Position numbers and translations under genes: made by a program
Notes under the pieces: model-generated
Databases searched by the model: none
The model's input: only the letters and a program-made list of their open reading frames with translations
What the model was told of the DNA's origin: nothing
NCBI GenBank assembly: GCA_963557775.1
Contig: CAUWDH010000020.1
Coordinates: forward strand, 2,052-66,051
Source of the DNA: an uncultured Sarcina sp.
GTDB lineage: Bacteria > Bacillota > Clostridia > Clostridiales > Clostridiaceae
Length of the DNA: 64,000 nucleotides
Direction: 5' to 3'
Shown: one piece after another, positions 1 to 60,390 of the stretch
Numbering within the stretch: position 1 is the first letter of the stretch
How the letters are laid out: each line of letters opens with the position of its first letter

Positions 1-61
1 AAAATATAATTATAGCTATTCCAATAACTATACCTATTACTATACCTGACATTAACTTCAT
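1..61 (-). CDS. 5' end of a small hydrophobic (membrane) protein, truncated by the window edge
   Basis: ATG at 61..59 lies 9 nt after GGAGG (revcomp of 71-75). The translation MKLMSGIVIGIVIGIAIIIF runs off the window. Confidence 0.35.
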   Translation of the reverse strand, partial: MKLMSGIVIGIVIGIAIIIF

Positions 62-123
62 TAAATCACTCCTCCAATATATATTAACATAGCATTAATA
101 GGTAGAAAAACCGGCAAAATATT

Positions 124-168
124 ATAAAAAAGTAACAAGGATGTATCAAAATTAATTAATACATCCCT
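124..168 (-). terminator. Rho-independent terminator downstream of the GNAT pseudogene
   Basis: Arms AAGGATGTAT (137-146) and ATACATCCCT (159-168). On the minus strand the single mismatch becomes a G-U pair and the hairpin is followed by a T-run (revcomp of 124-136). Confidence 0.6.
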
Positions 169-270
169 ACTTTTCTAATATTTACTTATATTTCCCGAAT
201 AAAAAAATATATAATTTCTTTTTTCATTTATTGAATTATTCTTCTGTAGGCACTTTAGGTCCTACTAAAT

Positions 271-718
271 TCAATTTATAAAAAGCAAGCCAAATTTAAA
301 ACCTACTTTTGTTACTGTACCTAAATACTTAAATCCCATTTTTTCATGCATTTTTATACTGCCTTCATTGGCCACATCAATTCCTGCTACAAGTGTTGCA
401 TATTCTCTTTCATTAGCAATCTTTATTATTTCCTTCATTAATTTTGTTGCAATCCCATGGTTTCTATAATCCTTATGTACATATATGGAATGCTCTATAC
501 CATGCTCTAAAAGGGCCAAATGTAGCAAAACCAACAACCCTATTATCTTCTTCAAATACTAATAGTGAATAAGCACCTTGTTTCTTTTTTTCATACTATT
601 GTTTTCTCTCTTCAAATGTCTCAGGCTTATAAGTGTAAATAGCTGTTGTATTCATTATAGCATCATTATAAATTTCTAAAATATCTTCTAAATTTTTTTC
701 ATTTGCTTCTCTTATCAT
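271..718 (-). pseudogene. GNAT N-acetyltransferase (phosphinothricin-acetyltransferase-like), disrupted by a nonsense codon and a frameshift
   Basis: From ATG 718..716 (GGAG SD upstream) the frame reads MIREANEKNLEDILEIYNDAIMNTTAIYTYKPETFEERKQ, then TAG at 598..596 where relatives have Trp. It continues YEKKKQGAYSLLVFEEDNRVVGFATFGPFRAW, then shifts frame near 495-510 into tracked ORF 271..555 (IEHSIYVHKDYRNHGIA...LVAGIDVANEGSIKMHEKMGF). Confidence 0.8.
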
Positions 719-814
719 TTTTACTCCTTTTACAGCAAAGTTATTTTTTATATTCTAGCACTTTTTATACAAAGCATAAAACCAACTTTAAGTATCTTTA
801 CTATTACGTTGAAA

Positions 815-858
815 TAAAAAAATCACTTGCTTTTCTTACAAAACAGCAAGTGATTTTC
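815..858. terminator. Bidirectional hairpin terminator after the giant NTPase gene
   Basis: ATCACTTGCT (822-831) pairs with AGCAAGTGAT (845-854). An A-run lies on the left and TTTT on the right. Confidence 0.7.
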
Positions 859-901
859 AATAACATTTAAACTACATTATTTCTTATAAAAAACTATTCT
901 T

Positions 902-3900
902 TTAAGTTCTTTTTCTATTTACTACTATTCTATTTTTTTCTTGCTTGAAAGTAGATATATACATTTTACTTTTTAGCTTTTCTAAAATTAACATATTTGC
1001 CTTAGTATTTTTTATATACATTTTTTTAGGACTTAAATCTAATAAACCACTATATTCTTCATCTATATATACTAATAAATTGCTAATATCCTGTTTATCA
1101 ATAAACTCTATTTGATATGCTATTAATCTTCTTCTTTTTTCCTTTTCAAAATCACATCGTATTATACTCTCAATTAATTTATATTCTATTTTTTCATTAG
1201 ATAAAAACTTTTCAATAATATCAAATATAATTTCTGCTAAAGAATCATCGATCTCTATATATTCTCCATAAAGCTTAATAATATTATATTTATTATCTTC
1301 TGATATTTTATCTGATTTAAGTATTAACTCCATATCACTTGAGTCAAAATCTTGTATTTTCTCTGAAATAAACTTCTCAATATTATTTTCTAACAAATTT
1401 ATATGTAACCCATCGTAATTAGTTTTTAGTGATTTATATATACTTTCAGTTAACGCAATAAGTTTTTTATTTATTAACACTAAAATTCTACTATCTAACA
1501 TATTTTCAAAATCAAAATCTATAAATGAGCCACCTAATTTACAGGATAATAAGTCGACTATTTCGTCTGAAATTATTTTAGACATTATAAACTTCTCAAC
1601 AAATAAATCTATATCTTCTTTTTCGTCATTACTAATAGATTCTTTATACAAAGTATCTTTTAATAATTCTTTACATACTTGAAGGTTATTTATAAAACTA
1701 CCTAAACATTCGTCTATACTATCATTAATCTTATAGTAACTTAATATATTTTCCCAACTAAAATTAACTTTCAAATTATCAAAGATTAAATTCCATATAT
1801 CTATATTTTTTATTTTATTTATATCGTCAATCTTAAATTGCTTAATATTGATTATATTATCTATAAGACCTTTATCTACTTCTTCATTATTTAAAATTTC
1901 AATTATAGTTTCAGTATTTTCTATAACACTAGATTCTACGAATATATTTCTTAAATATAAGTTTATATTATTTTCTATATATTTTATTAGATAATTTAAT
2001 TCATTTTTCTTTATATATGAATAAGCTAATTCTATATCATTCATATTTTCTATATTTTTATTCTCAATGAAAATTATTTTACTAACTATATCTATATTAA
2101 GTTCATATAAATCATGAGAATATATATCTTCAAAGACACTAATATATTGCTTATTTGACTGATTTTTTATGTCATTAACTATATCTTTATCTATATTTTT
2201 TAATTTTATATTTAATTTTATTAATATCTCTTTAAGTTTAGTTTTTTCTATTTTAATTGCTATTGTTTTTATAAAATTAGAATTTAATTCAATATATTCT
2301 TTTATATATCCATCGTTATTTTGTATTAATATATTTTCTACACTACAATATTTCAATAATAATTCTAAAATATAATCTTTTTTCTCTGATGATAAATAAC
2401 TATTTCCATATATACTATTCCAAAAGTTATTTATATTTTGACATAATAACTCAATAAAGCTAGAAATCTCTCCACTTTCATAGATAAAATCTATTATAAA
2501 ATTTATATCTTCCATTTTTAATTCTGACAAAAGGCCTACTATTTTCTTTAACCTTATTTTATTAATATCAATATATACATTTTCAGATAAAAATTTGATT
2601 AAGTTATAATTTAATATAGCTTTTGATTCAAAATCTTCTATCCTAAACTTAACTAATATCTCATTAATATTGTCTAATTTAAATTCGCAATCTAGTGGTT
2701 TATTATAGATTACACTTTGAACAAATTCAAAATCTTTTTGAGTTAATCTACCTTCATAAAAATATAATGAATAATATGAATACATTTCATCTATATACCC
2801 ATACTTTAGCAATCTAATAATTAAAGATTCCTCTTTTATTTTTTCATCTAAGCAATTAAAAAATCTTTCATCTTTCATAAGAGTAGCTACTGAACTATTT
2901 TTAAATTCTTTAATTTTATCTTCTGTATTTTGTATTTTCTTCTGATTCAATTTTATTTTTTCTTCTATATTTGTTCCCCTAGATTTTATAGCCATTAACC
3001 TTTCATAAAAATTAGTCTTTTCACCGTTTATAGTCATAAGATTTTCGAAATCTATTTTTATCCAATTATAATAATAATTTTTCTCTTGTGAAAATTCTAA
3101 TGAATTAACATTCTTCAACTTTTCAATAATCTCAATATTTTCCAAATCTTTAATGCTAAATATGTCATTAGAACATCTAATATAGTTAGCTCCCATAGAC
3201 TTCCATTTTTCATTATATACTGTATATAACTCTTCCTCATTTTCTAATATTTCTTTTTCTAGTTGCTGTATATTTAACCTATAAACTTCGAGTTCTTTAT
3301 ATAAACTGCCTATTGCTTTATCTGCAATTTTATTTTTTTCTGAAAAAACATTATATACCATACCATCTCTATTTTGTAACTTAGTAAAATCAACAGGATA
3401 TAAATTTTTATATACTATAATAGCAAGTAAATTATCAGCACTCAAAGTTATATTTCCTTTTTCTATTACTAATCTTCTATAATATATCAAAAATTCATTA
3501 TAAATATTTGTTAACAATCTCATATCATCTATAAATATAGATAAGTCACTTAATAACTCCTTGCTAACAATATTTCTTTGGTATCCATATTTTTCATTAA
3601 ATTGTTCTATCTTCTTGCTTAGAATTTCATAAGAGTTTTCTCCATTTACAATAGGTATAACTGGAATTATAAAATCAAAAAACTTAGTTCTATTTTTATT
3701 CATTTCTTTTTTGTCAATATATTTATATTCCTCATCATTCTCCAAATCTTCTTTAATAAAAAATATTTCATCCTTTATTGCATAAACAAAAGTCACTTTC
3801 TTACTTATAGAATCTGCTTTGTTTATTAAAGTATTTAATTCTCTAAGCTTAGTAAAAATCTCTAAGTTATCAAATCTATCTAAATCTTCAAAAAATACAA

Positions 3901-4834
3901 TATCATATTTTAATGATTCAAAAAAATACATAATTTCATCTAAATATCTATTAAATGTTTCACTTTCTTCTCTTTTACCAAATTCTAAATTACCATCTTT
4001 AGTTTGTATTTTATTTATTGTAAATTTACTTAATATGAATTTAATTAAAATCATTGTTATATATAGTATTGTTATACTACATATACAGACAATAATAATT
4101 ACAGTTAGATTAACATTATTTTTTACTATGGGTATAGTACTAAACAATTTTTTCAACTTTAAAATATTAGAAGTAAATTTTTCTATTAATTCAGGTTTTA
4201 TTAACAAGCTTAGTGTTAGTATCAATGACATAAAGATTAAAGTTACTTTAAATATATGTAGAAATCTTATATTTTTTATTTTGCGAAATCTAGAGTATGG
4301 CATCTTATCATAGCTAACTTTATAAAAAATCTGATTTAATATATTTCTTTCAAGTTCTTCTTCCAGTTTGTCATCTTCGCTATTTATAAATGTAGCTAAT
4401 GATACATCTAAATATTTATATTCTTTATATTGCTCTTTAAAACTTTCTATAATACTACTTTTTCCTGATCCATATATTCCTGATATCGCAATATTTTTTC
4501 TTTTCAAATCATCAATAGATTCTTTAAGAGCCTTAATATAACTATTGCTTCTATCTAAATTATCTTTTGGTGTTAAACTTTCATATTCCTTTTTATAATC
4601 TAACTTTTTTAATATCTTATTATTTATTTTTGCCAATAATGAAATACATAAATTTATAAATAATGAAAGTTTCTCTATAATAATCTTGTATTTATCTAGT
4701 ATATATTTCTTTATTCTTGTCCAAACTTTACTGCTTTTTTTCAGATTTAATACAAGTAAAATTATATTTATAATAAATATTAAAGTTATAATAATAAATA
4801 TCCCCCTCTTCCTCAAACATCTATATTTTGTCAT
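902..4834 (-). CDS. Giant (1310 aa) YobI/KAP-like P-loop NTPase with transmembrane segments inserted in the NTPase domain
   Basis: Walker A is GIYGSGKS (aa 119-126). Two hydrophobic helices lie at about aa 190-270. Walker B is IVFFEDLDRF (about aa 311-320). An N-terminal TM helix is present. The remaining ~950 aa are Ile/Asn/Lys/Glu-rich with no motif I recognise. The DNA is visibly more AT-rich than the neighbours. Confidence 0.7.
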   Translation of the reverse strand: MTKYRCLRKRGIFIIITLIFIINIILLVLNLKKSSKVWTRIKKYILDKYKIIIEKLSLFINLCISLLAKINNKILKKLDYKKEYESLTPKDNLDRSNSYIKALKESIDDLKRKNIAISGIYGSGKSSIIESFKEQYKEYKYLDVSLATFINSEDDKLEEELERNILNQIFYKVSYDKMPYSRFRKIKNIRFLHIFKVTLIFMSLILTLSLLIKPELIEKFTSNILKLKKLFSTIPIVKNNVNLTVIIIVCICSITILYITMILIKFILSKFTINKIQTKDGNLEFGKREESETFNRYLDEIMYFFESLKYDIVFFEDLDRFDNLEIFTKLRELNTLINKADSISKKVTFVYAIKDEIFFIKEDLENDEEYKYIDKKEMNKNRTKFFDFIIPVIPIVNGENSYEILSKKIEQFNEKYGYQRNIVSKELLSDLSIFIDDMRLLTNIYNEFLIYYRRLVIEKGNITLSADNLLAIIVYKNLYPVDFTKLQNRDGMVYNVFSEKNKIADKAIGSLYKELEVYRLNIQQLEKEILENEEELYTVYNEKWKSMGANYIRCSNDIFSIKDLENIEIIEKLKNVNSLEFSQEKNYYYNWIKIDFENLMTINGEKTNFYERLMAIKSRGTNIEEKIKLNQKKIQNTEDKIKEFKNSSVATLMKDERFFNCLDEKIKEESLIIRLLKYGYIDEMYSYYSLYFYEGRLTQKDFEFVQSVIYNKPLDCEFKLDNINEILVKFRIEDFESKAILNYNLIKFLSENVYIDINKIRLKKIVGLLSELKMEDINFIIDFIYESGEISSFIELLCQNINNFWNSIYGNSYLSSEKKDYILELLLKYCSVENILIQNNDGYIKEYIELNSNFIKTIAIKIEKTKLKEILIKLNIKLKNIDKDIVNDIKNQSNKQYISVFEDIYSHDLYELNIDIVSKIIFIENKNIENMNDIELAYSYIKKNELNYLIKYIENNINLYLRNIFVESSVIENTETIIEILNNEEVDKGLIDNIINIKQFKIDDINKIKNIDIWNLIFDNLKVNFSWENILSYYKINDSIDECLGSFINNLQVCKELLKDTLYKESISNDEKEDIDLFVEKFIMSKIISDEIVDLLSCKLGGSFIDFDFENMLDSRILVLINKKLIALTESIYKSLKTNYDGLHINLLENNIEKFISEKIQDFDSSDMELILKSDKISEDNKYNIIKLYGEYIEIDDSLAEIIFDIIEKFLSNEKIEYKLIESIIRCDFEKEKRRRLIAYQIEFIDKQDISNLLVYIDEEYSGLLDLSPKKMYIKNTKANMLILEKLKSKMYISTFKQEKNRIVVNRKRT

Positions 4835-5126
4835 AAATAGTTATTATTTTCTACTTTTATTATATCATTACAACAAAAAAAGATTAATTATCTTCAATTA
4901 GAACATTAATCTTTTTCTTTATTTTATGTATATTATTATATTACAGTAAATTTATTTGTCATCAACTCTTTAATTTATCTTATAAAATTTCTATTTCATC
5001 ATAAAATCTCTTCACTAAAAACTCTAAAAATGCGCAATCTCTTTTCTATCATATAAAACTGATATTAGTATAAAATAGTGGATACTATTAATTGAACTAA
5101 GTAAAATTATATTTAGTTAGAGATGA

Positions 5127-5393
5127 TGTATTCCTACTATAGATAGAAGTAAAATTTATACAGATGAATATAAAGAAATGATTTCTAATTTATACAACTC
5201 TAGAATGAATGTAACAAAAATAAGTAATAAATATGGAATAGCAAAATTAACTATAAATGAATAGATAAAAGCTAATAAAAAAGTTAAAGTTAGTGATAAG
5301 GAATTTATGACAATGAAATATAAAAAAGACTATGTCCATATTTACAAAGGAAAATTAGACAAAATAATAGACATTATAAATACCAATAAGTAA
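5127..5393 (+). mobile_element. IS3-family transposase OrfA (HTH) remnant with no start codon, an internal stop and no OrfB
   Basis: The frame reads CIPTIDRSKIYTDEYKEMISNLYNSRMNVTKISNKYGIAKLTINE*IKANKKVKVSDKEF..., the typical IS3 OrfA HTH pattern. TAG at 5262-5264 sits where the conserved Trp of the (Y/N)xWIK motif is expected. Confidence 0.6.
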
Positions 5394-5752
5394 AAAATAT
5401 TATTTACACCAAAATATCTAGTCTCTCAGTCTTTCACAGATTTTCGCATCTAACACTTAATTTTTACTTCTATTTAGCAACATACAAGTTTTAGCTATTA
5501 ATTACCTTCAATCAAACTCCCTTTATTCATTTTCTTAAGCACTCCTTGCTTGCAGCATATTCCTGTAGTGTACTCTCTTATTAAAGTTTATATTTCCTTT
5601 TCCTTTCTCCCACAGCCACACTCTCATCTTAAAAAAATTCCGACTATAATTCGACTATTAAAAATTCATAAAAATAGTCGTATCAATAACCCCTTTTATA
5701 ATCAAATTTTAATAGAAATCTAAAAAACTTTTATTTTTTTATCGTTCCAGTT

Positions 5753-5787
5753 AAAAAAAAGAGCCAAGCAATTACCTTGCTAAGCTC
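5753..5787 (-). terminator. Rho-independent terminator of the rRNA methyltransferase gene
   Basis: The minus strand reads GAGCTTAGCAAGGTAATTGCTTGGCTC followed by TTTTTTTT. Confidence 0.7.
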
Positions 5788-5933
5788 CTTTATTTCTCTT
5801 ATTTTCTTTCTATTTTTTGCTTTGTTTTATCTACTATAAACTTTCCACTTAATTCTGTATCAAAAATATCTTTCGCTAAACTTTTTTATGAAGAACCATT
5901 ATTAATTCGAATTAATTAAACTATATTAGAATA

Positions 5934-7292
5934 TTACAATTTCTTATTTAAATTTACAACAGTCTCTACATGCGGAGTATGTGGGAACATATCCATTAAA
6001 ACTGTTTTTTCTATTTCATAGCCACCTATTTGTAAAGCCTTTAAGTCTTCTACTAAAGTCTTTGGATTACATGAAACATATATTATTTGTTTTGGATTAA
6101 ACTTAATTACATATTCCATAGCTTTTGGATGTACTCCACTTCTTGGTGGGTCTAAGATTATTATGTCTGGTTTATCCTTTATTGTTTTTATAACTTCAGC
6201 TACATCACCAGCTATAAAGTTACAGTTTTCAAGGTTATTTAACTTAGCATTTTCGTTAGCAGCTACTACAGCTTCTTCTATAAGCTCAACACCAACAACT
6301 TTTTCTGCTTTTCCTGCTGCAATTTGACCAATTGTTCCTGTTCCACAATATAAGTCAAATACAACTTTATTACTTGCATCTCCCATGAAATCTCTAACTA
6401 TGCTATATAATTTTTCAGCACCTTCTGAGTTTGTTTGGAAGAATGAAAATGGTGATATTTTAAATTTAAGCCCTAATAATTCCTCTGTTATATGGTCTTC
6501 ACCATAAAGTATATTAATTTTTTCTGGAATTACAGCATCAGAAAATGAATCATTTTCTGTATGAATTATAGATTTTAAAGTTCCTTTGTAATCTAAGTTC
6601 TTTATTATGTCTACATATTCACTTAAATCAAAATCTATTTGTGTTGTAGTAACTAAGTTAACTATTATTTCACCAGTTTTCTTAGCTTTTCTAATTACTA
6701 AATGTCTTAAGTAACCTTCTCTTTGCATAACCTTATAAAAGGGTAAGCCTTTTTCTCTAAAATAATTAACTGTTGCCTTACATACTATTTCAAAATCATC
6801 ATCAGTTAAACAACATTTATCTATGTTAACTATTCCATTTCTTTTATTTACCATGTGCATTCCAAGGTTTAATTCTCCACCCTTAACTTCATCACCGAAG
6901 CTATATTCCATCTTATTTCTGTAATGATTTATTTCTGGGCTGTTTTCTATACCTAAGAAATTTCCCATAGTTACATTGCCTTCTTCAAAAAGCTTTTTAA
7001 CTTCATCTGTTTTAAATTCTAATTGTTTTTCATAAGGTATAACTTGTTGAATACATCCTCCTGATACTCCATGGTGATCACACATAGGTTCTATCTCGTA
7101 TTCAGCTTTTTCAACTACTTCAAGTACCTTTATTTCAGCGTATTCTCTTCTTTTCTTACTAACTCTCCCTTTAACAACTTGACCTGGAAAAGCATTTTTT
7201 GCAAAAACTTTTAATCCGTTCACATAGCCAATTCCTTTAGCTGGGAATTCTATATCTTCTATTTTAACTTCAATTATGCTTCCTTTTTTCAT
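5934..7292 (-). CDS. TRAM-domain 23S rRNA (uracil-5)-methyltransferase, RumA/RlmCD/TrmA family
   Basis: N-terminal TRAM-like domain. SAM methyltransferase motifs [15 protein letters not shown] and DPPRSG. Length 452 aa. Confidence 0.85.
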
Positions 7293-8050: not shown

Positions 8051-10546
8051 GTGAGAAAATTTAAAAGTAAACTAACAAAAACCATATCATTATTAATGTC
8101 TTTTGCTTTTATACTTGCTTTAGTACCTACTAGTTACGCTACGGCTACAGAAAAAACAGATACAAAGGCAGCTTCAGGAGCTCCTGGAAAGCCTCTCTTA
8201 CAACACAACCAATATGGAAATGACAGAGATGGAAATTATACTATAAGCTTCAATATGTGGTATGGTAATAACGGTACAAGCTATAAACTTTATGAAAAAA
8301 TAGGTATAAAGAACGACTTCGTTGTTATTTCAGAAGGAAAGCTTGAAGATGAGACACCCGGACCTCAAAGTGGAACTATTGAAATTACAGGTAAAACTAT
8401 TCCTGGAACCTACTATTATTATTTAGAACTAAATAATTCTTTTGGTACAACTATAAGTGAAACTATATCCGTTAAAGTTGGCTCAACTGAAACTAGTAAA
8501 ATAGTTATTGACAAAATAGATGATGAAAGAACAGAAGTTCAATTTACAGTTCCTCAAGGTACTTCTCAATACAAACTAGTTCATGTTGATGCAAAAGATC
8601 CTAAATTTAAAGTTATTTCAAGTAATACTTCTTCTGTTAAAGCTTCTATTACAGATGGAGATACTTTAAAAATTGAAGCTATAGGGGAAGGAAGAAGTGG
8701 TTTAAAAATAATAGAAGAAACTACTGGCGAAATAAGACAAATAGGTTGTAGAGTTTTAAAAGCTGATGGAAAAGTTCCTGGAATGCCTAATTACCTTTCT
8801 ATCGGTCAAGTTTCAGAAGATACTGATAACGATTTAAATTTTTGGAAAGAAACTTCTCATGATGATACAAACAAAAGAAGTGATATACGATATATCTATA
8901 TAAATGGAGGTCCTATTAGCGGTTGGAGAAAATGGACAACTGAAGATGGTGCTAGAGCTAAAAGATACCTTACTGAAAGTTTAAAATTAGGAATGATTCC
9001 TTTCTTTGTTTACTATAACATTCCAGATGATGCTGAAGACTACGCTGTAGATTTAGCTCATATAAATGATAAAGCTTATATGGAAGCATACTTCCAAGAC
9101 TTAAAATTCCTTTTAGATATTTGCAAAGAATATGCTGGTGATGAAACTGTTGGAATGGTATTTGAACCAGACTTCTTAGGCTATATGATGCAACAATCTG
9201 GTAAACAACCTAATGAAATTTCTGCTGTAGTTGATGCAGCTTATAGCTCAGGTATATTAGAAAAAGGAAAAGATCCTAACTTCGAAAATAATGTTAAAGG
9301 ACTAGTTGAAGCTATTAACTACACAGTTGAAAAATATTATCCTCAAGCTTATAATGGATGGCAATTTAATATTTGGGCATTTAGTGAACCTGGTATACCA
9401 AGTCAAGGCGTTCTTCATAAAACTGAATTTATAGGTATGGAAGAAGGACAAAAATATATAAAAGATGTAGCTAGAAAAACTGCTGAATACTATTTAGCAG
9501 CTGGAATAAATTCCTACGGAACTGAATTTATCTCTATAGATAAATATGGATTAGATGGTGCTTATGAACCTGGTGCTGCTGAAAATCCAAAAGATTCTAA
9601 ATGGCTTTGGAATTCAGATATTTGGAACAACTACTTACTTTACACTAAAACACTTCATGAAACTACAGAAAGACCAGTTATTCTTTGGCAAATTCCTGTA
9701 GGACATTTAAACTCTTCTCAAGAAAACAACCCATATGATGCTAGTGGTAAATTTAAAGATTTAACTAATGCTGTTGGAAACTATGAAGACTCAGCTCCTA
9801 CTTTCTTCTTTGGTGATACCTTTAACGCTGGTGGTGGAAAAAGAACTGAATACTTTAGTACTAATGAATATAATGATCCTAAAGTAAAAGTTCAAGGTGA
9901 CACTATCACTTGGGAAAATCATATGAAAGAAGCTAAAGATGCTGGTATTGTTTCTATATTATTCGGTGCTGGTGTTGGTGCTAGTACAGATGCTGTAGGT
10001 TCTCCTGCTCCCGATAATTATTGGTGGATAACTAAAGCACAAAGATACTTAAAAAAACCATTACCTTTAGATGCTTCTAATATTGTACAACCAGAAAATA
10101 ACTTACCACTTAAGGGTACCTTAACTTCTAATACTACTAATAGCAAAGATGGCAACTATTCATTAACTTTAACTTTACCAAAGAACCATAATGCTACTTC
10201 TTATGAAATATTAGAAAATAATAAAATAGTAAAATCTGCTTCACTCACAAATTCATCTACTTCAATAAAAGAAGATTTTAAAAATAAAACTGATGGAACT
10301 TACGCTTATGAGGTTATCTTAAAAAATAAAAATGGAACATCAAAAACTTCTAAAATAACTATATCAGTTAAGAGGGAAAGTACTGAAAAACCTACTCCTG
10401 AAACTAATTCTTGGAAAGCAGATGTCAACTACAAAGTTGGAGATGTAGTTTCCTACAATAACAAGAAATATAAATGCATTCAGCAACACTTATCCTTAAA
10501 TGGCTGGGAGCCAACTAATGTTCCAGCGCTTTGGTCACAAAACTAA
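8051..10546 (+). CDS. Secreted multidomain carbohydrate-active protein with two ChiN-like modules, an unassigned central catalytic domain and a C-terminal CBM5/12 chitin-binding domain
   Basis: GTG start 8 nt after AAGGGGG. Signal peptide present. NMWYGNNGTSYKLYE and DGNYSLTLTLP...YEILENN resemble chitinase N-terminal modules. The C-terminus YKVGDVVSYNNKKYKCIQQH..GWEP..VPALW is CBM5/12-like. Confidence 0.6.
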   Translation: MRKFKSKLTKTISLLMSFAFILALVPTSYATATEKTDTKAASGAPGKPLLQHNQYGNDRDGNYTISFNMWYGNNGTSYKLYEKIGIKNDFVVISEGKLEDETPGPQSGTIEITGKTIPGTYYYYLELNNSFGTTISETISVKVGSTETSKIVIDKIDDERTEVQFTVPQGTSQYKLVHVDAKDPKFKVISSNTSSVKASITDGDTLKIEAIGEGRSGLKIIEETTGEIRQIGCRVLKADGKVPGMPNYLSIGQVSEDTDNDLNFWKETSHDDTNKRSDIRYIYINGGPISGWRKWTTEDGARAKRYLTESLKLGMIPFFVYYNIPDDAEDYAVDLAHINDKAYMEAYFQDLKFLLDICKEYAGDETVGMVFEPDFLGYMMQQSGKQPNEISAVVDAAYSSGILEKGKDPNFENNVKGLVEAINYTVEKYYPQAYNGWQFNIWAFSEPGIPSQGVLHKTEFIGMEEGQKYIKDVARKTAEYYLAAGINSYGTEFISIDKYGLDGAYEPGAAENPKDSKWLWNSDIWNNYLLYTKTLHETTERPVILWQIPVGHLNSSQENNPYDASGKFKDLTNAVGNYEDSAPTFFFGDTFNAGGGKRTEYFSTNEYNDPKVKVQGDTITWENHMKEAKDAGIVSILFGAGVGASTDAVGSPAPDNYWWITKAQRYLKKPLPLDASNIVQPENNLPLKGTLTSNTTNSKDGNYSLTLTLPKNHNATSYEILENNKIVKSASLTNSSTSIKEDFKNKTDGTYAYEVILKNKNGTSKTSKITISVKRESTEKPTPETNSWKADVNYKVGDVVSYNNKKYKCIQQHLSLNGWEPTNVPALWSQN

Positions 10547-33007: not shown

Positions 33008-36000
33008 TTAGTCTACATTCTCTTCTGTAGGTGTTGGGTTATTTGATTCAATTCTATTTTTATTTTCTTCTATTTCACCTTTTACTTCATCCTCATTAGT
33101 CTCTGTCTTATACAAGACTTCATTATCTTTCACATCTTGTAAGTCTGGATTTAAAGTATAAGTATACTCATCCCCTGCCATAGTTCTAGGTTTATATGAT
33201 GGGAACTTTTCTTTTAACTCATCTCTCCAGTAAGTTTCATAAATAGCTCTTGCAACTGGTGCTCCTAAATAACCATTTATACCATCATATATTACTACAG
33301 CTACTGCTATTTGAGGATCTTCAACTGGTGCAAAAGATACATACACACCAAAAGCCTGTCTTCCTAATTCTTCTTGACCAGCTTTAAATGTTGCTGTTCC
33401 TGTTTTACCACCTGTTTGTATTGGGAAATTCCCAAACACACTATAACCAGTTCCTCCAGAAGGATCATGGTTAACCATTCTCATTCCTTCTTTTATAGTA
33501 TCAACAGTTGATTTTTTCATATCTATTTTATCTAATACAACAGGCTTAACCTCTTCTATTAAATTACCTTCATAATCTGATATTTTATCAACTAAACTAA
33601 CCTTATATCTTGTTCCTCCATTAACTAAAGTTGATATATAACTTGCTAATTGAAGTGGTGTATAAGCATTAGTTGATTGCCCTATAGCTGAAAATGCAAG
33701 TTCAGCTGGTGTTGTAGCTGACATTTTAACTGTTGTTGTCATCCAATCATAAGTTTCTTGTGCTGTCTTTTCAAATACGTCATCTGCTGATACTTTTGAA
33801 TTATTAACTTTATTATCTATAGTTTCCTTATAAGTTGGAAGCTCTTTATATAAAGTTTTTAATCCCGCTATAGCTTCTGCCTTAAACTCTTCCTTCATAG
33901 CAATACTTCCAAAGTTAGGCTCACCTATTTGATTTAAATACTTCTCTATTATATTTTTGTAATCTTGTTTAGCTTTAGCAACTTCAGCTGAATCTGAATC
34001 GTTTTTACCTATTTCAACAGGTGTAAATTCATATCCACCTTTAAACTTACCATTTCTCATTGCTTCAACTAAATCCCATCTCATATAATAGATTGTATTC
34101 TTTTTAAATGATTCAAAATTATAAGTGTTACCAAAGTTTTCAGCTATTTCTATTCCTGTTCCAGCAACAGTATCACTTTTTGGATCTTTTCCAAGACCAA
34201 ATCTCCAAGCATATTTAGCTATACTATTTAATCCTTCTACAGAACTATTATATTTTCTGTATAATCTAACTCCAATTTCATAGTATAATGAGTTACAAGA
34301 TTTTTGTAATGCTCCTTTAATATCAACAGTTCCATGATTCTTATTATCCTTTGGAGTTCCTATTAAATCAGCATATTTTATAAATCTAAGACCACTACCT
34401 AAAACAGCTCCATCACTTACTGTCTCATTAAGTCCTATTACATTCTCCTCTAATCCAGCAACAGAAGTAAGTGGCTTAAAAGTTGATCCTGGTTGGGTTA
34501 AACCTAACGTTGCATAATTGTACATTGGTTTTGGATAAACATCATATAAATCCTGTCTAAAACCATTTTCATCCTTAGGGAACAACTCATCAACAGTTTT
34601 ATTTAATCCCATTCTTCTAATGAACTCTTTCCCAAACTCTTCAAGATTAGGATTCATAAGTTCTTTAGCCTTTTCTGAATGTATATTTCCATTAGCAAAC
34701 ACATTAGGGTCAAAGCTTGGATAGCTAGCCATAGATAAAACCTTTCCTGTTTTTACATCTAATGCAACCGCAGCCCCTCTTGTAGCATTTTTGCCTTTTC
34801 CCACATTTTTTTGTATATACTCTAATTGAGTTTTTAACATTCTCTCTGTAGATGATTGAATATCTTTATCTATACTAAGAGTAATACTGTTTCCTGGAGC
34901 AGTCTGTAATGAATATAAAGTTTCAATAGGTCTGCCATGAGCATTTACTTTAACCATATCTCCACCTTTTGTCCCCTTTAATTGAGCTTCAAAAGCAGCT
35001 TCTATTCCAGATCTTCCTACTAAATCGCTAGATACATCATATCCTTGATCTACATATTTTGACTTTTGCGAACTTGGTATAGCACCCACATATCCAAGAA
35101 CACTTGATGCTAATTCATTATAAGGATAATATCTTACAGGATCTTGATTTATATTTATTCCTGGTAAATCACTTAATTTTTGATAAAATATAAAAGCTGT
35201 ATCATCTTTTATACCTTGAGCTAAATTAACATCCTTAAAGCTTGAAAAACTTTGCATTTTTGCTGCATCTTTTACAAGCATATACTTTCTTATTTGCTCT
35301 AAACTATAAGTTTTTCTTAACTCATCTAAAATTTCTTTTCCAGTTTTGTTTTTATATTCTTCTTTAAAAGCCTTTCTAAACTCCTTCTCTTCAGTTTCGT
35401 TAGAGAAAGTTTTATTTTTAAGTAATAATTGCTTCATATCGTATTGTTCAATTAAATACTCAAAAGCTTGCTCTGGAGTTATTGTTAAAAGTACCTCATC
35501 GATTTTTGCACTTTGTTCTGCTGTTAAATCTCCTTCTGCTTTAGGATATAATTTTTTTCTGACCTTCTCATCAAGTCCTCTATCTTTTTTAAATCTTAAT
35601 TCAGCTGCTTTTAAATTTTCTTCATTTTCAAAACCAAAATCAAAGGCTAGATTTCCATCTTTATTTATTATTAAATCCATATTATCTTGTATTTTTTCAC
35701 CATTATCATCTAATATCTTAAAGACTTTATCCATTATGCTGTAAAACTTCTTTTTTGACTCGGTAGTTTCAGTAAAAGTTAATGTATAAGTTTGCTTATT
35801 AGCTGCTAATACATTACCATTTTTATCATAGATTTTTCCCCTTGGAGCTTTATCAGACATAAATCTCATAGATCTATTATCTGCTCTTTCCTTAAACTCT
35901 TCGTAATTAAAAACTTGAAGAGAAAGTAATTTTAATACTATGACGGAGAATATAACGCACATTATTCCAGTTAGACCATTAAATCTATCTGACTTTTTAT

Positions 36001-36028
36001 TTTTTTTATTTAATTTTAGTTTTTTCAT
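33008..36028 (-). CDS. Class B penicillin-binding protein 2 paralog A (1006 aa, expanded)
   Basis: N-terminal TM anchor, with transpeptidase motifs STFKP, SCN and KTGTA. Collinear with the neighbouring PBP2 over its full length. Confidence 0.85.
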   Translation of the reverse strand: MKKLKLNKKNKKSDRFNGLTGIMCVIFSVIVLKLLSLQVFNYEEFKERADNRSMRFMSDKAPRGKIYDKNGNVLAANKQTYTLTFTETTESKKKFYSIMDKVFKILDDNGEKIQDNMDLIINKDGNLAFDFGFENEENLKAAELRFKKDRGLDEKVRKKLYPKAEGDLTAEQSAKIDEVLLTITPEQAFEYLIEQYDMKQLLLKNKTFSNETEEKEFRKAFKEEYKNKTGKEILDELRKTYSLEQIRKYMLVKDAAKMQSFSSFKDVNLAQGIKDDTAFIFYQKLSDLPGININQDPVRYYPYNELASSVLGYVGAIPSSQKSKYVDQGYDVSSDLVGRSGIEAAFEAQLKGTKGGDMVKVNAHGRPIETLYSLQTAPGNSITLSIDKDIQSSTERMLKTQLEYIQKNVGKGKNATRGAAVALDVKTGKVLSMASYPSFDPNVFANGNIHSEKAKELMNPNLEEFGKEFIRRMGLNKTVDELFPKDENGFRQDLYDVYPKPMYNYATLGLTQPGSTFKPLTSVAGLEENVIGLNETVSDGAVLGSGLRFIKYADLIGTPKDNKNHGTVDIKGALQKSCNSLYYEIGVRLYRKYNSSVEGLNSIAKYAWRFGLGKDPKSDTVAGTGIEIAENFGNTYNFESFKKNTIYYMRWDLVEAMRNGKFKGGYEFTPVEIGKNDSDSAEVAKAKQDYKNIIEKYLNQIGEPNFGSIAMKEEFKAEAIAGLKTLYKELPTYKETIDNKVNNSKVSADDVFEKTAQETYDWMTTTVKMSATTPAELAFSAIGQSTNAYTPLQLASYISTLVNGGTRYKVSLVDKISDYEGNLIEEVKPVVLDKIDMKKSTVDTIKEGMRMVNHDPSGGTGYSVFGNFPIQTGGKTGTATFKAGQEELGRQAFGVYVSFAPVEDPQIAVAVVIYDGINGYLGAPVARAIYETYWRDELKEKFPSYKPRTMAGDEYTYTLNPDLQDVKDNEVLYKTETNEDEVKGEIEENKNRIESNNPTPTEENVD

Positions 36029-36402: not shown

Positions 36403-39400
36403 TTATGAATATGAATCATTTGTATTTCCTGTTTCATATACAACTTTATCACCTTTACCATACACAGGATAATAAGTTCCTTTAAGAGTTATATCTGGTG
36501 TTGGTGGATCTAATGAATAAGTATAATATGAATATGGATCATTTTCTAAAATACCATTACCATCATCTGTATGTGGACGATAATATGGATATTTAGTTTT
36601 AATTTCATCTCTAAAGTAAGTTTCATAAACTGCTCTAGCTGCAGGTGCTCCTAAGAATCCGTGAATACCATTGTATATTACTGTTACAACTGCTATTTGA
36701 GGATCTTTAACTGGTGCAAAGGAAATATAGTTACCCCAAGCTGCTCTACCTACAGATTTTTCAACCTTAGCATTAAGAGCAGCTGTACCTGTTTTACCTG
36801 CACTAGGTATAGGGAATCCTTCTTGCATCATTACTATAGCTGCTGTTCCCTTAATTTTATTATTAACTTCCCACATACCATACTTAATATCATTTAAGTC
36901 TTTAGTTGGTATATTTATTTTATCCATAACTTGTGGCTTATATTGATATATAAGCTTTCCTGTTGGAGAAGTTATTTTATCAAGTAAATGTAACTTATAT
37001 CTAGTACCACCATTTGCTAAAGTAGCTGTATATTGAGCTAATTGTAAAGGAGTAAATTCGTTAGCACCTTGTCCAATTGCTGCATATCCAAGCTGTGCTG
37101 GTGTTCTTATACTTGTGTACATTGTTGATACTACCCATATATCAATTGCTCTTGCAGTAGCTTGTAAGTTAGCTTCTAAAGTTAACTTTGGATCTTTCGC
37201 TTGAGCTGCCTTAAAGGCTTCTTGATATTGTGATGATAATTTATAAATATTATTTAATTGTCCTATTAAGTCATTTTGGAATGCAGTTTGTGCCACATTA
37301 CTTTGAATATCTTCTACTCCAATTTTATTTAATTGAGAGTATACTGTCTTCTTAAATGTTGCTTTAGCTTCTGCTAATTCTGCTGGATCACTTGAATCTT
37401 TTTCAACATTAACAGGTACAAAACTAACTCCTTGACTTGGGAATTTACCAGCTTTTAAGTCAGCAACTAAATTCCATTGAGAATAGAATATCTCATTAGC
37501 CTTCCAGTCTTGGAAGTTATAAGCATTACCAAAGTTCTCTGGTAACTCTATTCCTGTAGTAGCTGGTTGCTTACTTCCTGGAAGCGTACCTAAACCAAAC
37601 TTTTCTGCATATTCTGCAACCACATCTAAGGCGTTTGTTGAAGCTCCAAATTTATAATAAATTTTAGCTGCCATATTGTAGAAATAAGTATCACATGATC
37701 TCTCTAAGGCAGTTGCTAAATCAACAGCTGGTCCAAAGTAGTTATTATCATGTGGTGGATCATTACCAAATATAGTTGGCTTAGCTTCATAAGTATATGG
37801 ATATGGTGTTGTTGCAATTGTAAAGCTTGGAGTTGTTACTCCAGTCATTAATGAAGCTACTGACATAAGTGGTTTAAATGTTGACCCAGGCGCTACAAGT
37901 CCCATTGTTGCATTATCAAACATTGGTTCTGGAAGAACATTATATAAGTCTTCTCTTTGACCATTTGGCCCTATTGGGAACATTTGATTTAATGTCTTTT
38001 TAAGATGCATCTTATCAATGAACTCTTGTCCTAATTTTGCTATGTCTGGATCGAAATATTCATTATAAACCTTTTGGCTTATGCTTCCTGACGCAAAATC
38101 ATTAGGATTAAAGTTTGGTAAACTTACCATAGCAAGTATACCTCCAGTATGAACATCTACTGCAACTAAAGCTGCTTTAGTTGCTGCTGTGCCTTCATAT
38201 TTTTGTATAAAGTTCATTTGTTGTTGTAATGCTCTTTCAGCTGAATACTGTAAATTTTTATTTATAGTTAAATATACATTATCCCCTGGAACTGCCTCTT
38301 GTGTATATAATGTTTTAGTTGCTCTTCCTTGGGCATCAACTTGAACAACCTTTTCTCCTGGTGTTCCTCTTAAAACATCTTGTTCAGCTGCTTCCATTCC
38401 AGAAATACCAACTAAAGCATTTGAGCTATATCCTTGCTCTTCATAAGTTTGACTTTCACTAGCTGGAATATGTCCTATATATCCTAAAACATGTGATGCT
38501 AAAGTTCCATATGGATAATATCTTTCATATTGTTTACTAATATTTATTCCTGGTAAACTGCTAAGTCTTTGATCAAACATTAAAGCTGTATCTTTACTTA
38601 TTCCTTTAGCTATAACAATTGGATCATAACCTGAATAACTTTCTAACTTTAATTGATCCTTAACAACCATAAACTCTCTTATTTCTTGTAAACTATAATG
38701 TTGTAAAAGAATTTCGGTTTCCTCTTTACCTGACATTTTTTGATAAGCTTTAGTAAATGCTGTTTGTTCTGCTGTAGTTAATGTCTTATTTATATTAAGC
38801 ATATTTATAAGTCCATAACTCTTAACTAAATCATAAAATATATCATCAGGTGTATACTGAAGAATTATTTTATTTATTGCTTCTCTTTGAGCAGTTGTAT
38901 AAGTCCCATTAGCTTTTGGATATAATTTATTAGCTACAGATCCTTCAACTCCTCTATTCCACATGAATTGAATTTCTTGGTCATTCCATCCGGTAGGATT
39001 TTTCTCTTTATTTATTGGAAAATCAAAATACATTTGACCTTCACTGTTTATTTTTAGTGGGAAATCATCTGAAACCTTGTTAATATCTCCACTATTTTTT
39101 AGCATTTCAAAAACTGTATTCATCGTATTATAAAAATCATTCATAGATTCTTGTGTATCTGTAAATGTTATTACATTTATTGATTTATTTGTTGCTAATA
39201 AATCACCATCTGCCGACAAAATATTTCCTCTTGGAGCCGGTATTGTAATAACACTAGTTGCTCTACCTTCTGCCTGCTCTGTAAAACTTTGATGATTAAA
39301 CACTTGTATATCAACAAGTTTAGCAATTAGAATCACAGCTATAATAACAAAAATGATCATTAATACTCGATATCTGCTAACAGCTTTTTTCTTCCTGAAG

Positions 39401-39414
39401 TTAAATTTTTTCAT
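36403..39414 (-). CDS. mrdA: Class B penicillin-binding protein 2 paralog B (1003 aa), last gene of the mreBCD operon
   Basis: TM anchor, with motifs STFKP, SCD and KTGTA. The start lies 8 nt after the mreD stop. Confidence 0.85.
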   Translation of the reverse strand: MKKFNFRKKKAVSRYRVLMIIFVIIAVILIAKLVDIQVFNHQSFTEQAEGRATSVITIPAPRGNILSADGDLLATNKSINVITFTDTQESMNDFYNTMNTVFEMLKNSGDINKVSDDFPLKINSEGQMYFDFPINKEKNPTGWNDQEIQFMWNRGVEGSVANKLYPKANGTYTTAQREAINKIILQYTPDDIFYDLVKSYGLINMLNINKTLTTAEQTAFTKAYQKMSGKEETEILLQHYSLQEIREFMVVKDQLKLESYSGYDPIVIAKGISKDTALMFDQRLSSLPGINISKQYERYYPYGTLASHVLGYIGHIPASESQTYEEQGYSSNALVGISGMEAAEQDVLRGTPGEKVVQVDAQGRATKTLYTQEAVPGDNVYLTINKNLQYSAERALQQQMNFIQKYEGTAATKAALVAVDVHTGGILAMVSLPNFNPNDFASGSISQKVYNEYFDPDIAKLGQEFIDKMHLKKTLNQMFPIGPNGQREDLYNVLPEPMFDNATMGLVAPGSTFKPLMSVASLMTGVTTPSFTIATTPYPYTYEAKPTIFGNDPPHDNNYFGPAVDLATALERSCDTYFYNMAAKIYYKFGASTNALDVVAEYAEKFGLGTLPGSKQPATTGIELPENFGNAYNFQDWKANEIFYSQWNLVADLKAGKFPSQGVSFVPVNVEKDSSDPAELAEAKATFKKTVYSQLNKIGVEDIQSNVAQTAFQNDLIGQLNNIYKLSSQYQEAFKAAQAKDPKLTLEANLQATARAIDIWVVSTMYTSIRTPAQLGYAAIGQGANEFTPLQLAQYTATLANGGTRYKLHLLDKITSPTGKLIYQYKPQVMDKINIPTKDLNDIKYGMWEVNNKIKGTAAIVMMQEGFPIPSAGKTGTAALNAKVEKSVGRAAWGNYISFAPVKDPQIAVVTVIYNGIHGFLGAPAARAVYETYFRDEIKTKYPYYRPHTDDGNGILENDPYSYYTYSLDPPTPDITLKGTYYPVYGKGDKVVYETGNTNDSYS

Positions 39415-58466: not shown

Positions 58467-60203
58467 CTACATTTTAGTCCATAATTCTAAGGCTCTTGAA
58501 ACTAAACTTTCTTGTCTAGCTTCTAATACTTCCATATTCCAATCCTTATTTGAGAATATTTCTTTACTTATTTCAAATTCACTTTTCTTGCTTAAGTATT
58601 GTTCAACTTTCTCTAAGAAAGGCTTATTATTAACTCTTGTATTCTTAGCTCCTGTAATTAAAACAAGATTTCCAAATTTATTTACCCAATTTCTTCTTTG
58701 GTCAGCTTTAAAATTACTTACCCAATATAAATCCTTTGAATTTCTTGGCAGTATGTGCTCTATCATTAGCTTATTACTAATTTCTAGTTCTTTTCCTTCT
58801 ATTAATTCAAGTTCCAATCTTAAGAAAACATACTTTGGAACTGTCATTCTACCTTTACTATAAAAATCTATATCATTTAATGCATTTTTAAAGTAATTTA
58901 CTGTTCTATCTAAATCACCAATAAATACATCATGGTTCTTTAGTTCTTCTAAAGAAGATACTTCATCTATGGCTTCTATTATCTTATATACTCTATCTAA
59001 TCTTTCAGCAAATGCATTACCATTTACCCAATCAATAACAACTCTCTTCTCTAAGATTTTTAAGAATTCTACAGTTGCTTCGTCATTATTAAACTTCTCT
59101 ATAAATCTTATTAAAGCTGCTATCCACTCATCATATGGAAGTAACTCTTTCATTATGTTTACTAAATTTTTATAATATACAGCTTTATTTTTATCAGTAA
59201 CATTTACAGTTCCATCAACAACATAAGTGCTATATATTTCTTTTAAACTATGCATATGATTTATAAATTCTTCACCTATATATTCTTCTTTATTTAAGAA
59301 TATATTTTTAGCAAATTCATCATATAAGCTTTCATCTGCCTTTGCTTTTAAAATCATAGCTCTCATATAGCCTATAAGTTTTTCAATTCCATCTTTACCT
59401 AAGTCTATTTCATCATTTTCCCATATTTCAGTGAAATCTTTTCTTCTCTCTATATTAATAACTCTTAAGTTCTCACTCTTAAGTAAATCTGAATTTGTTA
59501 AAGGTAAACCTCTAGAGTTTATTACATTGAATAATCTAAATGCTGATTCAAAAGTATTAGTTGTTATAACTACTAATACTACCTTTTGAAGAAGGTATTT
59601 TATAAATGCATTTAATTTTTCTTCTAAAACATTTCCTTCTTCATCAGAAAAGCTTGTCTTAAAAATCTTAATAGCATTTATCATATTTTTCTTAGCTTCA
59701 CTTAATTCTTCTTCATCTAAATTTGAAATTAAATTAGTTCCACCTTCTGTTAAAATATATTCCTTAAAGAAATCACTTTCTTTTCCTCTTACCTTAACTC
59801 TTATACTTTCTTTAATTCCCATAAGCTCATTTGCTTCTTGATATATTAAAGAACCTAATACTTTTTTATATTCTTCGCTAGCTATCATATCTCTAATAGT
59901 AGCAATTAACATTATTATTGATGTAAGTCTTTGTTGTCCATCTATAACATCATAACGTCCCCAACCATCATCTTTATATTCTTTTGAACATAAAACTATG
60001 CTTCCTATAAAATAAGGTTCGTAGCTTTCAAACTCTCTATCTTTATTTAAAGTAATTGATAATTCTATATCATCTACTAACTGCTTTAAATTTTCCTCAG
60101 TCCATGAATATGCTCTTTGATAATCTGGTATTTCAAAAACAAACTTAGGGCTTAAAAGGTCTTTTATATAATATTCTTTAGCTTTTATATTTTCAGTAAA
60201 CAA
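58467..60203 (-). CDS. DUF262 (ParB/NTPase-like) plus DUF1524 (His-Me nuclease) protein, GmrSD-like type IV restriction candidate
   Basis: N-terminal IPDYQRAYSW and DGQQRLTS motifs. C-terminal IEHILPRN...KFGNLVLITGAKNTRVNNKPF. The likely start is TTG 60203, 7 nt after GGGAGG; the tracked ORF starts at TTG 60218. Confidence 0.8.
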   Translation of the reverse strand: MFTENIKAKEYYIKDLLSPKFVFEIPDYQRAYSWTEENLKQLVDDIELSITLNKDREFESYEPYFIGSIVLCSKEYKDDGWGRYDVIDGQQRLTSIIMLIATIRDMIASEEYKKVLGSLIYQEANELMGIKESIRVKVRGKESDFFKEYILTEGGTNLISNLDEEELSEAKKNMINAIKIFKTSFSDEEGNVLEEKLNAFIKYLLQKVVLVVITTNTFESAFRLFNVINSRGLPLTNSDLLKSENLRVINIERRKDFTEIWENDEIDLGKDGIEKLIGYMRAMILKAKADESLYDEFAKNIFLNKEEYIGEEFINHMHSLKEIYSTYVVDGTVNVTDKNKAVYYKNLVNIMKELLPYDEWIAALIRFIEKFNNDEATVEFLKILEKRVVIDWVNGNAFAERLDRVYKIIEAIDEVSSLEELKNHDVFIGDLDRTVNYFKNALNDIDFYSKGRMTVPKYVFLRLELELIEGKELEISNKLMIEHILPRNSKDLYWVSNFKADQRRNWVNKFGNLVLITGAKNTRVNNKPFLEKVEQYLSKKSEFEISKEIFSNKDWNMEVLEARQESLVSRALELWTKM

Positions 60204-60390
60204 TTTTTTTCCTCCCAATCTACACCTATTAGCAAAATTATCTAAATTAAACAGTGGGTATTACCTCTGAATAAAATTTTATACTTTTCCATATCTACCT
60301 ACATATGTAAATATAAGACTTAAAAATAGACTTTTAATTATTTTCTATAGAAAATATTTTAATAGGACACATTGTCCTTATATTTACAAC

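Follow-up and report, generated by a model that had tools for sequence, protein, structure and literature searches.

A member gene of the Tmn/YobI family of membrane-anchored anti-phage ATPases in a strain-variable islet of an uncultured Sarcina species

The paper that discovered Tmn is reportedly that of Gao et al., published in Science in 2020. Tmn is a single-gene anti-phage system; its discovery is cited to pmid 32855333 in reference 19 of a 2026 preprint (PMC13001434), which also cites, as reference 21, a report of synergy between Tmn and Gabija, Septu, and PrrC (10.1101/2022.08.21.504612). A further paper describes a phage protein directed against Tmn, along with nmad5 escape mutations (PMC11846954). 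Here, we consider a gene that we call tmn, found on the minus strand of a 64,000-nucleotide stretch of DNA (“the window”) from an uncultured Sarcina sp. (assembly GCA_963557775.1, contig CAUWDH010000020.1, positions 2,052 to 66,051). An earlier reading of the bare sequence, hereafter the original prediction, had described its 1310-aa product as a YobI/KAP-like membrane P-loop NTPase. It is close to certain, in our judgment, that this protein belongs to the Tmn/YobI family of membrane-anchored anti-phage ATPases.

What is known of this family comes largely from the preprint named above (PMC13001434). Tmn was found in 5,915 of 223,572 genomes, 24% of them Bacillota, and falls into ten clades with no conserved operon. 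Conservation extends to the Walker A motif, the Walker B motif, and two transmembrane helices inside the P-loop domain; the helical C terminus varies. Tmn-25 of Escherichia coli forms an umbrella-shaped membrane decamer with a central channel in an 11.6-Å cryo-electron microscopy map, and its arms consist of a proximal coiled coil with a variable alpha/beta domain and a distal solenoid of ARM- and HEAT-like repeats. The RIIB protein of phage T2 activates Tmn directly through these arms, and activated Tmn shows higher ATP turnover and selective export of Mg2+, with plasmolysis and no depolarization of the membrane. Five Tmn variants drawn from three clades were all phage protective.

Several independent searches place the window protein in this family. 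In a Pfam scan, the YobI-ATPase profile (PF20693) matched over its entire length (positions 1 to 363 of 363) with an E value of 3.6e-111 and 372.6 bits against a cut-off of 27, and no domain beyond YobI-ATPase was found; the PADLOC model for Tmn matched with an E value of 4.2e-67 (aa 80 to 1144 against positions 22 to 1101 of 1273). A 3.9-kb open frame in DNA of 20% GC with a Pfam match of this strength cannot have arisen by chance. An NCBIfam search gave nothing useful, and a sequence search of the PDB returned chance matches only, hence no solved relative at the sequence level. More than 5600 relatives are present in the protein database; the best 120 matches listed were mostly full length, and the named ones among them were mostly “YobI family P-loop NTPase.” YobI-like proteins of Bacillus are 31 to 33% identical over 94 to 96% of the length, which bears out the resemblance to Bacillus YobI that had been seen in size and layout. 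In an alignment of 21 sequences, among them members from Bacteroidota and Proteobacteria and YobI-like proteins of Bacillus, collinearity extends from the linker helix that precedes the NTPase core to the last residues. A tblastn search against plasmids matched 628 records, mostly conjugative plasmids of E. coli, and the E. coli plasmid protein WP_064055658.1 (1273 aa, annotated as “anti-phage transmembrane ATPase”) is 25% identical over ~1000 aa (E = 5e-61).

Because both the YobI-ATPase and the Tmn profiles match, the family cannot be called functionally uncharacterized, and most of the interest claimed for the gene is thereby removed. The original prediction was right to see a defense type; what it took for an uncharacterized resident of defense islands is the Tmn system, with a PADLOC model and mechanistic work behind it (PMC13001434, PMC11846954). 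The gene is a further member of an already described defense family, not a new system.

Could the protein instead be a strict KAP-family NTPase of the PifA/Kidins220 type, acting by the mechanisms proposed for those proteins? KAP NTPases were the first proteins in which a P-loop domain with a transmembrane insertion was described (Aravind et al. 2004, reference 16 of PMC13001434), and one paper terms Tmn a KAP-family NTPase (PMC11846954), whereas the other treats YobI and KAP as separate families (PMC13001434). In our Pfam scan of the 1310-aa protein, KAP_NTPase (PF07693) gave no match even at an E value of ≤1, against 372 bits for YobI-ATPase, and we regard a strict KAP identity as highly improbable. 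“KAP-like” is an imprecise label for the protein. The same scan returned no NACHT or NB-ARC match, the mark by which STAND/Avs proteins would be recognized.

Membership in the Tmn/YobI family is borne out at the level of single residues. WP_064055658.1 follows the numbering of Tmn-25 (G66 and K67 fall in Walker A), and with this protein added to the alignment (22 sequences), every residue mutated in Tmn-25 could be placed. The nine NTPase residues whose mutation abolishes defense in Tmn-25 (G66, K67, Y262, D276, R279, N297, K325, F326, and R374; PMC13001434) correspond to G124, K125, Y303, D317, R320, N338, K384, F385, and R439 of the window protein and do not vary among the 22 sequences. In the proximal arm, R544 aligns with the invariant R612. 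Y541 and F506 are conservatively replaced by F609 and I570, and the position of L867, the specificity residue, varies, as expected. The NTPase halves are 36 to 44% identical to E. coli Tmn and the arms 18 to 21%; the C-terminal module is common to both proteins, and its motif, YISSFK...I.V, is kept in Bacillus, proteobacterial, and E. coli members.

The Walker motifs named at the outset, and the two hydrophobic helices between them, were confirmed. GIYGSGKS (aa 119 to 126, with the lysine K125) and FFEDLDRF (aa 314 to 321) are spaced 187 aa apart, and the 19-residue segments of highest hydrophobicity between them have Kyte-Doolittle (KD) means of 2.40 (aa 194 to 212) and 2.93 (aa 246 to 264), at the same position in ~100 full-length homologues. 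An AlphaFold2 (AF2) model of aa 1 to 520, with a mean predicted local distance difference test score (pLDDT) of 78, has a helix at 6 to 33, a linker helix at 35 to 78, and a Rossmann-like core in which helices 191 to 212 and 238 to 270 are inserted between the strands of Walker A and Walker B. In a Foldseek search, the best PDB match of this N-terminal half was the RdrA ring of RADAR (E = 4.8e-5), followed by AAA+ and ORC-type ATPases.

The tail (aa 490 to 1310), modeled from a 68-sequence alignment with a mean pLDDT of 90, is predicted to begin with long helices in pairs, accompanied by a small beta-rich insert; stacked helices follow over ~600 residues, and a small alpha/beta module closes the chain. 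Its matches in the PDB were HEAT/ARM solenoids (SF3B1, importin-13, importin-beta, CAND1, beta-catenin, and the PP2A A subunit), with the weak E values and low TM-scores usual for flexible solenoids, and no enzymatic fold stood among the best of them. The tail had been described as helical-repeat-like with no nameable motif, and a structural search of it for an effector had been proposed; the helical repeats stand, the models give them a name, and no effector came to light. As modeled, the tail runs from a proximal coiled-coil arm into an ARM/HEAT-like solenoid, the presumed sensor scaffold, with no hidden effector domain. Taken together, the predicted models reproduce the published Tmn architecture: a transmembrane hairpin in a Rossmann core, a coiled-coil arm, a solenoid, and a C-terminal module.

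How, then, does the protein compare with its closest described relatives? Like E. coli Tmn (Tmn-25, F-plasmid WP_064055658.1; PADLOC PDLC02220), it is the product of a single gene (~1270 to 1310 aa) with a Walker A motif, a hairpin of two transmembrane helices, and a Walker B motif; the essential NTPase residues are all identical, and its predicted arms and C terminus follow those of E. coli Tmn, with a proximal coiled coil, a distal ARM/HEAT-like solenoid, and a small alpha/beta module at the end. Both genes are mobile and accessory, without a conserved operon. Unlike E. coli Tmn, with which it shares 25% identity overall, the window protein belongs to a Gram-positive anaerobe and has ~55 extra N-terminal residues with a third predicted hydrophobic helix, and its gene is not carried on an F-type plasmid but lies on the chromosome, in a putative hotspot between rlmD and a conserved gene. 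With Bacillus subtilis YobI and YobI-like proteins of Bacillota (PF20693), it is collinear throughout, including the C-terminal YISSFK module, but the Bacillus YobI-like proteins are ~1200 aa long and lack the N-terminal hydrophobic helix. With RdrA of RADAR and other oligomeric defense ATPases (STAND/Avs, KAP/PifA), it would share a P-loop/AAA+-like core, a ring, helical-repeat sensors, and an anti-phage role; those proteins, however, have no transmembrane hairpin inside the NTPase domain. The window protein has neither a separate effector partner, such as RdrB of RADAR, nor an Avs-type N-terminal effector domain, its N terminus being, in the AF2 model, a hydrophobic helix and a linker helix only.

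The gene is accessory and horizontally transferred. The interval from rlmD to the next conserved gene was recovered in four states. In the window, rlmD (5934 to 7292) is followed by 1.1 kb of noncoding DNA with an IS3 remnant, by tmn, and by a pseudogene of a GNAT acetyltransferase. In conspecific strains (98.8% identity in the flanks), the site is empty, and window positions 1 to 183 and 5926 onward lie 11 nt apart. In the sister species Clostridium massiliamazoniense, window positions 1 to 884 and 5754 onward are conserved and the GNAT gene is intact, and the inner cassette (885 to 5753) is swapped for 1.9 kb with a gene for a 345-aa protein. The exchange falls exactly at the rlmD terminator on one side and at the hairpin that terminates tmn on the other, a hairpin that also closes the alternative cassette. 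In another strain of the window's species (a 2.79-Mb assembly), the DNA is identical to the window up to 5972 and then diverges into an element of >8.8 kb (L001:1-8862), which adjoins the tmn islet and lies in the 3′ end, or last codons, of rlmD, whose product has 455 aa there versus 452. Genes for a serine recombinase and a Phage_CRI-like Rep protein lie on this element, together with a type I Thoeris system that is complete (ThsA, E = 2e-203; ThsB, E = 2e-80). A survey of strains and island boundaries had been suggested as a check; it gives an islet at 184 to 5925 that conspecific strains lack, and the gene is clearly not a conserved core gene with fixed synteny. A hairpin with a 16-bp stem at window positions 134 to 171, downstream of the GNAT pseudogene, stands directly after rlmD in the empty-site strains, where it is apparently the rlmD terminator; therefore, the islet sits between rlmD and its ancestral terminator.

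The 345-aa protein of C. massiliamazoniense (L004:12285-13322) has an N-terminal signal/anchor sequence and a HEAFH (HExxH-type) motif and gave no Pfam or PADLOC match. Given that sequence and that motif, it was set aside as a defense candidate. In the assembly of the type strain (L005), its gene is split into open reading frames (ORFs) of 252 and 80 aa.

Homologues of tmn that are 81 to 85% identical at the protein level occur at unrelated loci in C. perfringens, in Paeniclostridium sordellii, and in a Romboutsia metagenome-assembled genome. The C. perfringens homologue adjoins a cluster of type VII secretion system (T7SS)/LXG toxin genes and a serine-recombinase element, and that of P. sordellii adjoins phage-like DNA polymerase A, VapE, and Mor genes. 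The DNA common to the window and these loci (87 to 90% identity) extends only from 4924 to ~900, that is, over the gene and ~90 bp upstream. A scan of genome contigs for exact peptide patterns returned a single locus, a result that understates the distribution. The empty conspecific site and these homologues uphold the earlier suggestion of horizontal acquisition. Base composition is likewise as it had been described: the GC content of tmn is 20.4%, versus 27.3% for the whole window and 30% for the neighboring rlmD, and the gene is essentially the most AT-rich 3.9-kb stretch within the 64 kb. The ratio of nonsynonymous to synonymous substitution rates (dN/dS) against the homologues is 0.26 to 0.32 overall, lowest in the NTPase domain (0.16 to 0.19) and highest in the proximal arm (0.36 to 0.45). 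This shows purifying selection with faster-evolving arms, matching the published diversification of arms in closely related Tmn pairs (PMC13001434).

The gene stands alone, with its own terminator and a promoter-like site, and is found in four unrelated genomic contexts. As a monocistronic unit with a terminator at 822 to 854, it had been read correctly: the minus strand of 812 to 870 folds at −17.9 kcal/mol (z = −5.4; none of 200 shuffles was as good) and is followed by a run of U. A simple terminator scan overlooked this hairpin because of its bulged stem, and folding confirmed it. The promoter-like site is a candidate only, since such consensus matches are not enriched in this AT-rich DNA, and it falls just outside the DNA common to the tmn loci of other species. 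The two remnants that bracket the gene were also identified as first described. Of the GNAT fragments, 271 to 555 matches Acetyltransf_1 at 6e-16 and 596 to 718 matches weakly; the intact orthologue in C. massiliamazoniense has 170 aa, and the flanking DNA (window 1 to 884) is 91% identical. The IS3 OrfA remnant matches a C. perfringens IS3 family transposase by tblastn (54.7% identity over 64 aa, E = 3e-16), as well as many other IS3 transposases; its conceptual translation has no Pfam match.

Where translation starts is ambiguous from the sequence. The annotated ATG at 4834 has no good Shine-Dalgarno (SD) sequence. In P. sordellii, a canonical SD sequence and an ATG stand directly before the extra N-terminal helix, and relative to its homologues the window has a 15-nt deletion that removed the region holding this ATG. 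A strong SD-like motif, GAGGAAGAGGGGGA, lies within the first 11 codons of the annotated ORF, with only ATA and ATT codons downstream of it. The start may thus be the ATG at 4834 or a noncanonical ATT or ATA codon after the SD-like motif, and the extra helix would be translated from either.

These observations bear on whether the gene still works. Is it a recently acquired passenger, dead or silent in a decaying islet and turning into a pseudogene, as its neighbors have? The GNAT pseudogene and the IS3 remnant on its flanks, the lack of a strong SD sequence before the annotated ATG together with the deletion of the region used as the start in P. sordellii, and a promoter that lies outside the DNA shared with other species would all suit such a passenger. 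They are set against a 3.9-kb frame that is still open in DNA of 20% GC, catalytic residues that are all intact, the dN/dS values given above, and the presence of an identical 1310-aa protein on 7 contigs from different samples. We find a dead or silent passenger very unlikely; this reading of decay and the strict KAP reading were both considered and rejected on the evidence given.

An intact member of the Tmn/YobI family it is, then, and one with a peculiarity of its own. The two predicted helices between the Walker motifs are supported by KD, by AF2, and by their family-wide position, and a third hydrophobic segment that had been overlooked lies at the N terminus (aa 11 to 29; KD 3.21), the strongest of the three. 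Walker A of Bacillus YobI starts at ~aa 65 and that of E. coli Tmn at ~aa 60, against aa 119 here, and the ~55 additional residues before it are the hydrophobic helix and a lysine-rich linker. A strong hydrophobic segment upstream of Walker A occurs in 10 of 107 full-length matches, all 10 in the close clade, and in clade members down to 47% identity the hydrophobic character of the segment is kept while its sequence has diverged. The helix is predicted to leave a very short N terminus outside the cell and the NTPase in the cytoplasm. We found no mention of such a helix in PMC13001434. As a tentative proposal, which we hold to be possible rather than likely, the clostridial clade (the window protein, its relatives in C. 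perfringens, P. sordellii, and Romboutsia, and more distant members with as little as 47% identity) would be a three-helix variant of Tmn with an altered hub or pore, and the rlmD-proximal slot would be a small cassette-exchange hotspot for defense genes.

We posit, with good though incomplete confidence, that the gene protects its host from phages by the published Tmn route. Our own analysis establishes family membership, conserved catalytic residues, a predicted architecture, accessory and horizontal status, and purifying selection; the oligomeric state, the sensing of a trigger by the arms, Mg2+ export, and plasmolysis are carried over from the E. coli work. In this model, by homology with E. 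coli Tmn, each protomer would be anchored in the cytoplasmic membrane by the two-helix hairpin between Walker A and Walker B and would have two cytosolic arms, the proximal coiled coil and the distal ARM/HEAT-like solenoid, and protomers would form a large ring, which is a decamer in E. coli. The arms would recognize an early phage protein, productive binding would raise ATP turnover in the NTPase hub, and this turnover would drive the export of a cation (Mg2+) and deplete ATP. Export and depletion, in turn, would collapse the cytoplasm and stall phage replication. The trigger must differ from T2 RIIB; the RIIB of T-even phages is not expected in clostridial phages.

Several points weigh against this reading. 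The islet is otherwise decaying, with two flanking pseudogenes; the arms are only ~18 to 21% identical to those of the characterized E. coli protein; the extra N-terminal helix falls outside the described family architecture; and the loop joining the two inserted helices is lysine rich, which is unusual for an extracytoplasmic loop. The published mechanism rests on one preprint and an 11.6-Å map, and we found in the literature no experiments on the window protein or on any clostridial member. Walker A-dependent protection and trigger-induced ATP turnover and Mg2+ export have been shown for E. coli variants only, and plasmolysis by Mg2+ export, as seen in a Gram-negative bacterium, might not occur in an anaerobe with a thick wall.

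Such points leave room for a YobI-family membrane NTPase with a role other than defense, be it a regulated cation exporter, an envelope-stress protein, or a weapon for excluding plasmids or integrative and conjugative elements in conflicts among mobile elements. Most YobI-family members, B. subtilis YobI included, have never been functionally tested, the homologues adjoin mobile-element genes and a T7SS toxin cluster and not defense genes alone, and the reported activity of Tmn is itself the export of an ion (PMC13001434). Nonetheless, all five Tmn variants assayed protected against phages, the same locus also receives Thoeris, and presence and absence within a species, gene-only spread, and fast-evolving arms are typical of immunity genes; we therefore consider a nondefense role unlikely. 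Anti-phage defense by the Tmn route remains our preferred reading, and the features on which it draws are collected in Table 1.

Table 1. Coordinates of tmn, its parts, and its surroundings, numbered from the first nucleotide of the window
Feature	Coordinates	Strand	Evidence
tmn/yobI-family gene, 1310 aa, intact	902..4834	-	ORF, Pfam PF20693, PADLOC Tmn, dN/dS
Clade-specific extra N-terminal hydrophobic helix “TM0” (aa ~6-33), predicted, then basic linker helix (aa 35-78)	4736..4819	-	KD, AF2
SD-like GAGGAAGAGGGGGA within first 11 codons of annotated ORF, putative	4801..4814	-	Inferred from sequence and homologue comparison
NTPase region with YobI-ATPase profile match	3353..4540	-	Pfam profile 1-363/363, AF2 Rossmann-like core, Foldseek
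Walker A GIYGSGKS, aa 119-126, K125	4457..4480	-	G124/K125 = essential G66/K67 of E. coli Tmn
Predicted transmembrane helix 1 of inserted hairpin, aa 191-212	4199..4264	-	KD 2.40, AF2 helix, family-wide position
Predicted transmembrane helix 2 of inserted hairpin, aa 238-270	4025..4123	-	KD 2.93, AF2 helix, family-wide position
Walker B FFEDLDRF, aa 314-321, D317 and R320	3872..3895	-	Essential D276/R279 of E. coli Tmn
Proximal arm, aa ~495-660, predicted coiled-coil helices and small beta-rich insert, approximate boundaries	2855..3352	-	AF2 pLDDT ~80-90; R612 = essential R544
Distal arm, aa ~661-1260, predicted all-alpha ARM/HEAT-like solenoid, presumed trigger sensor, approximate boundaries	1055..2854	-	AF2 pLDDT ~90-96, Foldseek
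Small C-terminal alpha/beta module, aa ~1261-1310, motif YISSFK...I.V	905..1054	-	AF2 strands and helix
Intrinsic terminator of tmn, hairpin and U-run	812..858	-	Folding
Best sigma-70-like promoter candidate, ATGACA-16-TATAAT	4935..4962	-	11/12 consensus match
GNAT acetyltransferase pseudogene, fragments 596-718 and 271-555	271..718	-	Pfam, intact orthologue
IS3-family OrfA (helix-turn-helix) remnant, one in-frame stop	~5127..5390	+	tblastn, translation
Strain-variable islet, 5.74 kb	184..5925		blastn break-points, gene maps, junction sequences

Elsewhere in the window, a 583-aa protein (58467 to 60218, minus strand) matches GmrSD_N (E = 5.7e-41) and GmrSD_C (E = 7.4e-30) and is a type IV, or modification-dependent, restriction enzyme, a second defense gene in the window; a gene for a protein with MutS domain V (60491 to 62281) adjoins it. 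Two tandem paralogous class B penicillin-binding proteins on the minus strand (33008 to 36028 and 36403 to 39414) are, at ~1000 aa each, unusually long. The 180 positions of the PBP_dimer profile match across ~310 residues and the transpeptidase match comes in two pieces, which suggests large insertions. An 831-aa secreted protein (8051 to 10546, plus strand) ends in a CBM_5_12 chitin-binding module; its C. massiliamazoniense orthologue has 1054 aa and additional CBM_2 and ChitinaseA_N-like parts, and this gene therefore also varies between the two species.

As an addition to the catalog of defense genes, the finding contributes little: thousands of genomes are already on record as carrying Tmn, roughly one in four of them from Bacillota, and the usual defense finders would call the gene. 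Its value lies in the locus and in the clade. Within one species, a single site is found empty, with tmn, or with tmn plus Thoeris, depending on the strain; the sister species has another cassette there. Such an arrangement suits the study of defense-gene turnover in gut clostridia. The comparison also documents gene-only horizontal transfer of a 4-kb defense gene between Clostridiaceae and Peptostreptococcaceae. If the rlmD-proximal slot is indeed a site of cassette exchange, its alternative occupants would be candidates for new functions. And if the three-helix variant is real, could the extra helix suit Gram-positive envelopes, another exported ion, or a trigger located in the membrane? A clade with a third predicted membrane helix offers, in any case, an inexpensive way to study the construction of the Tmn hub.

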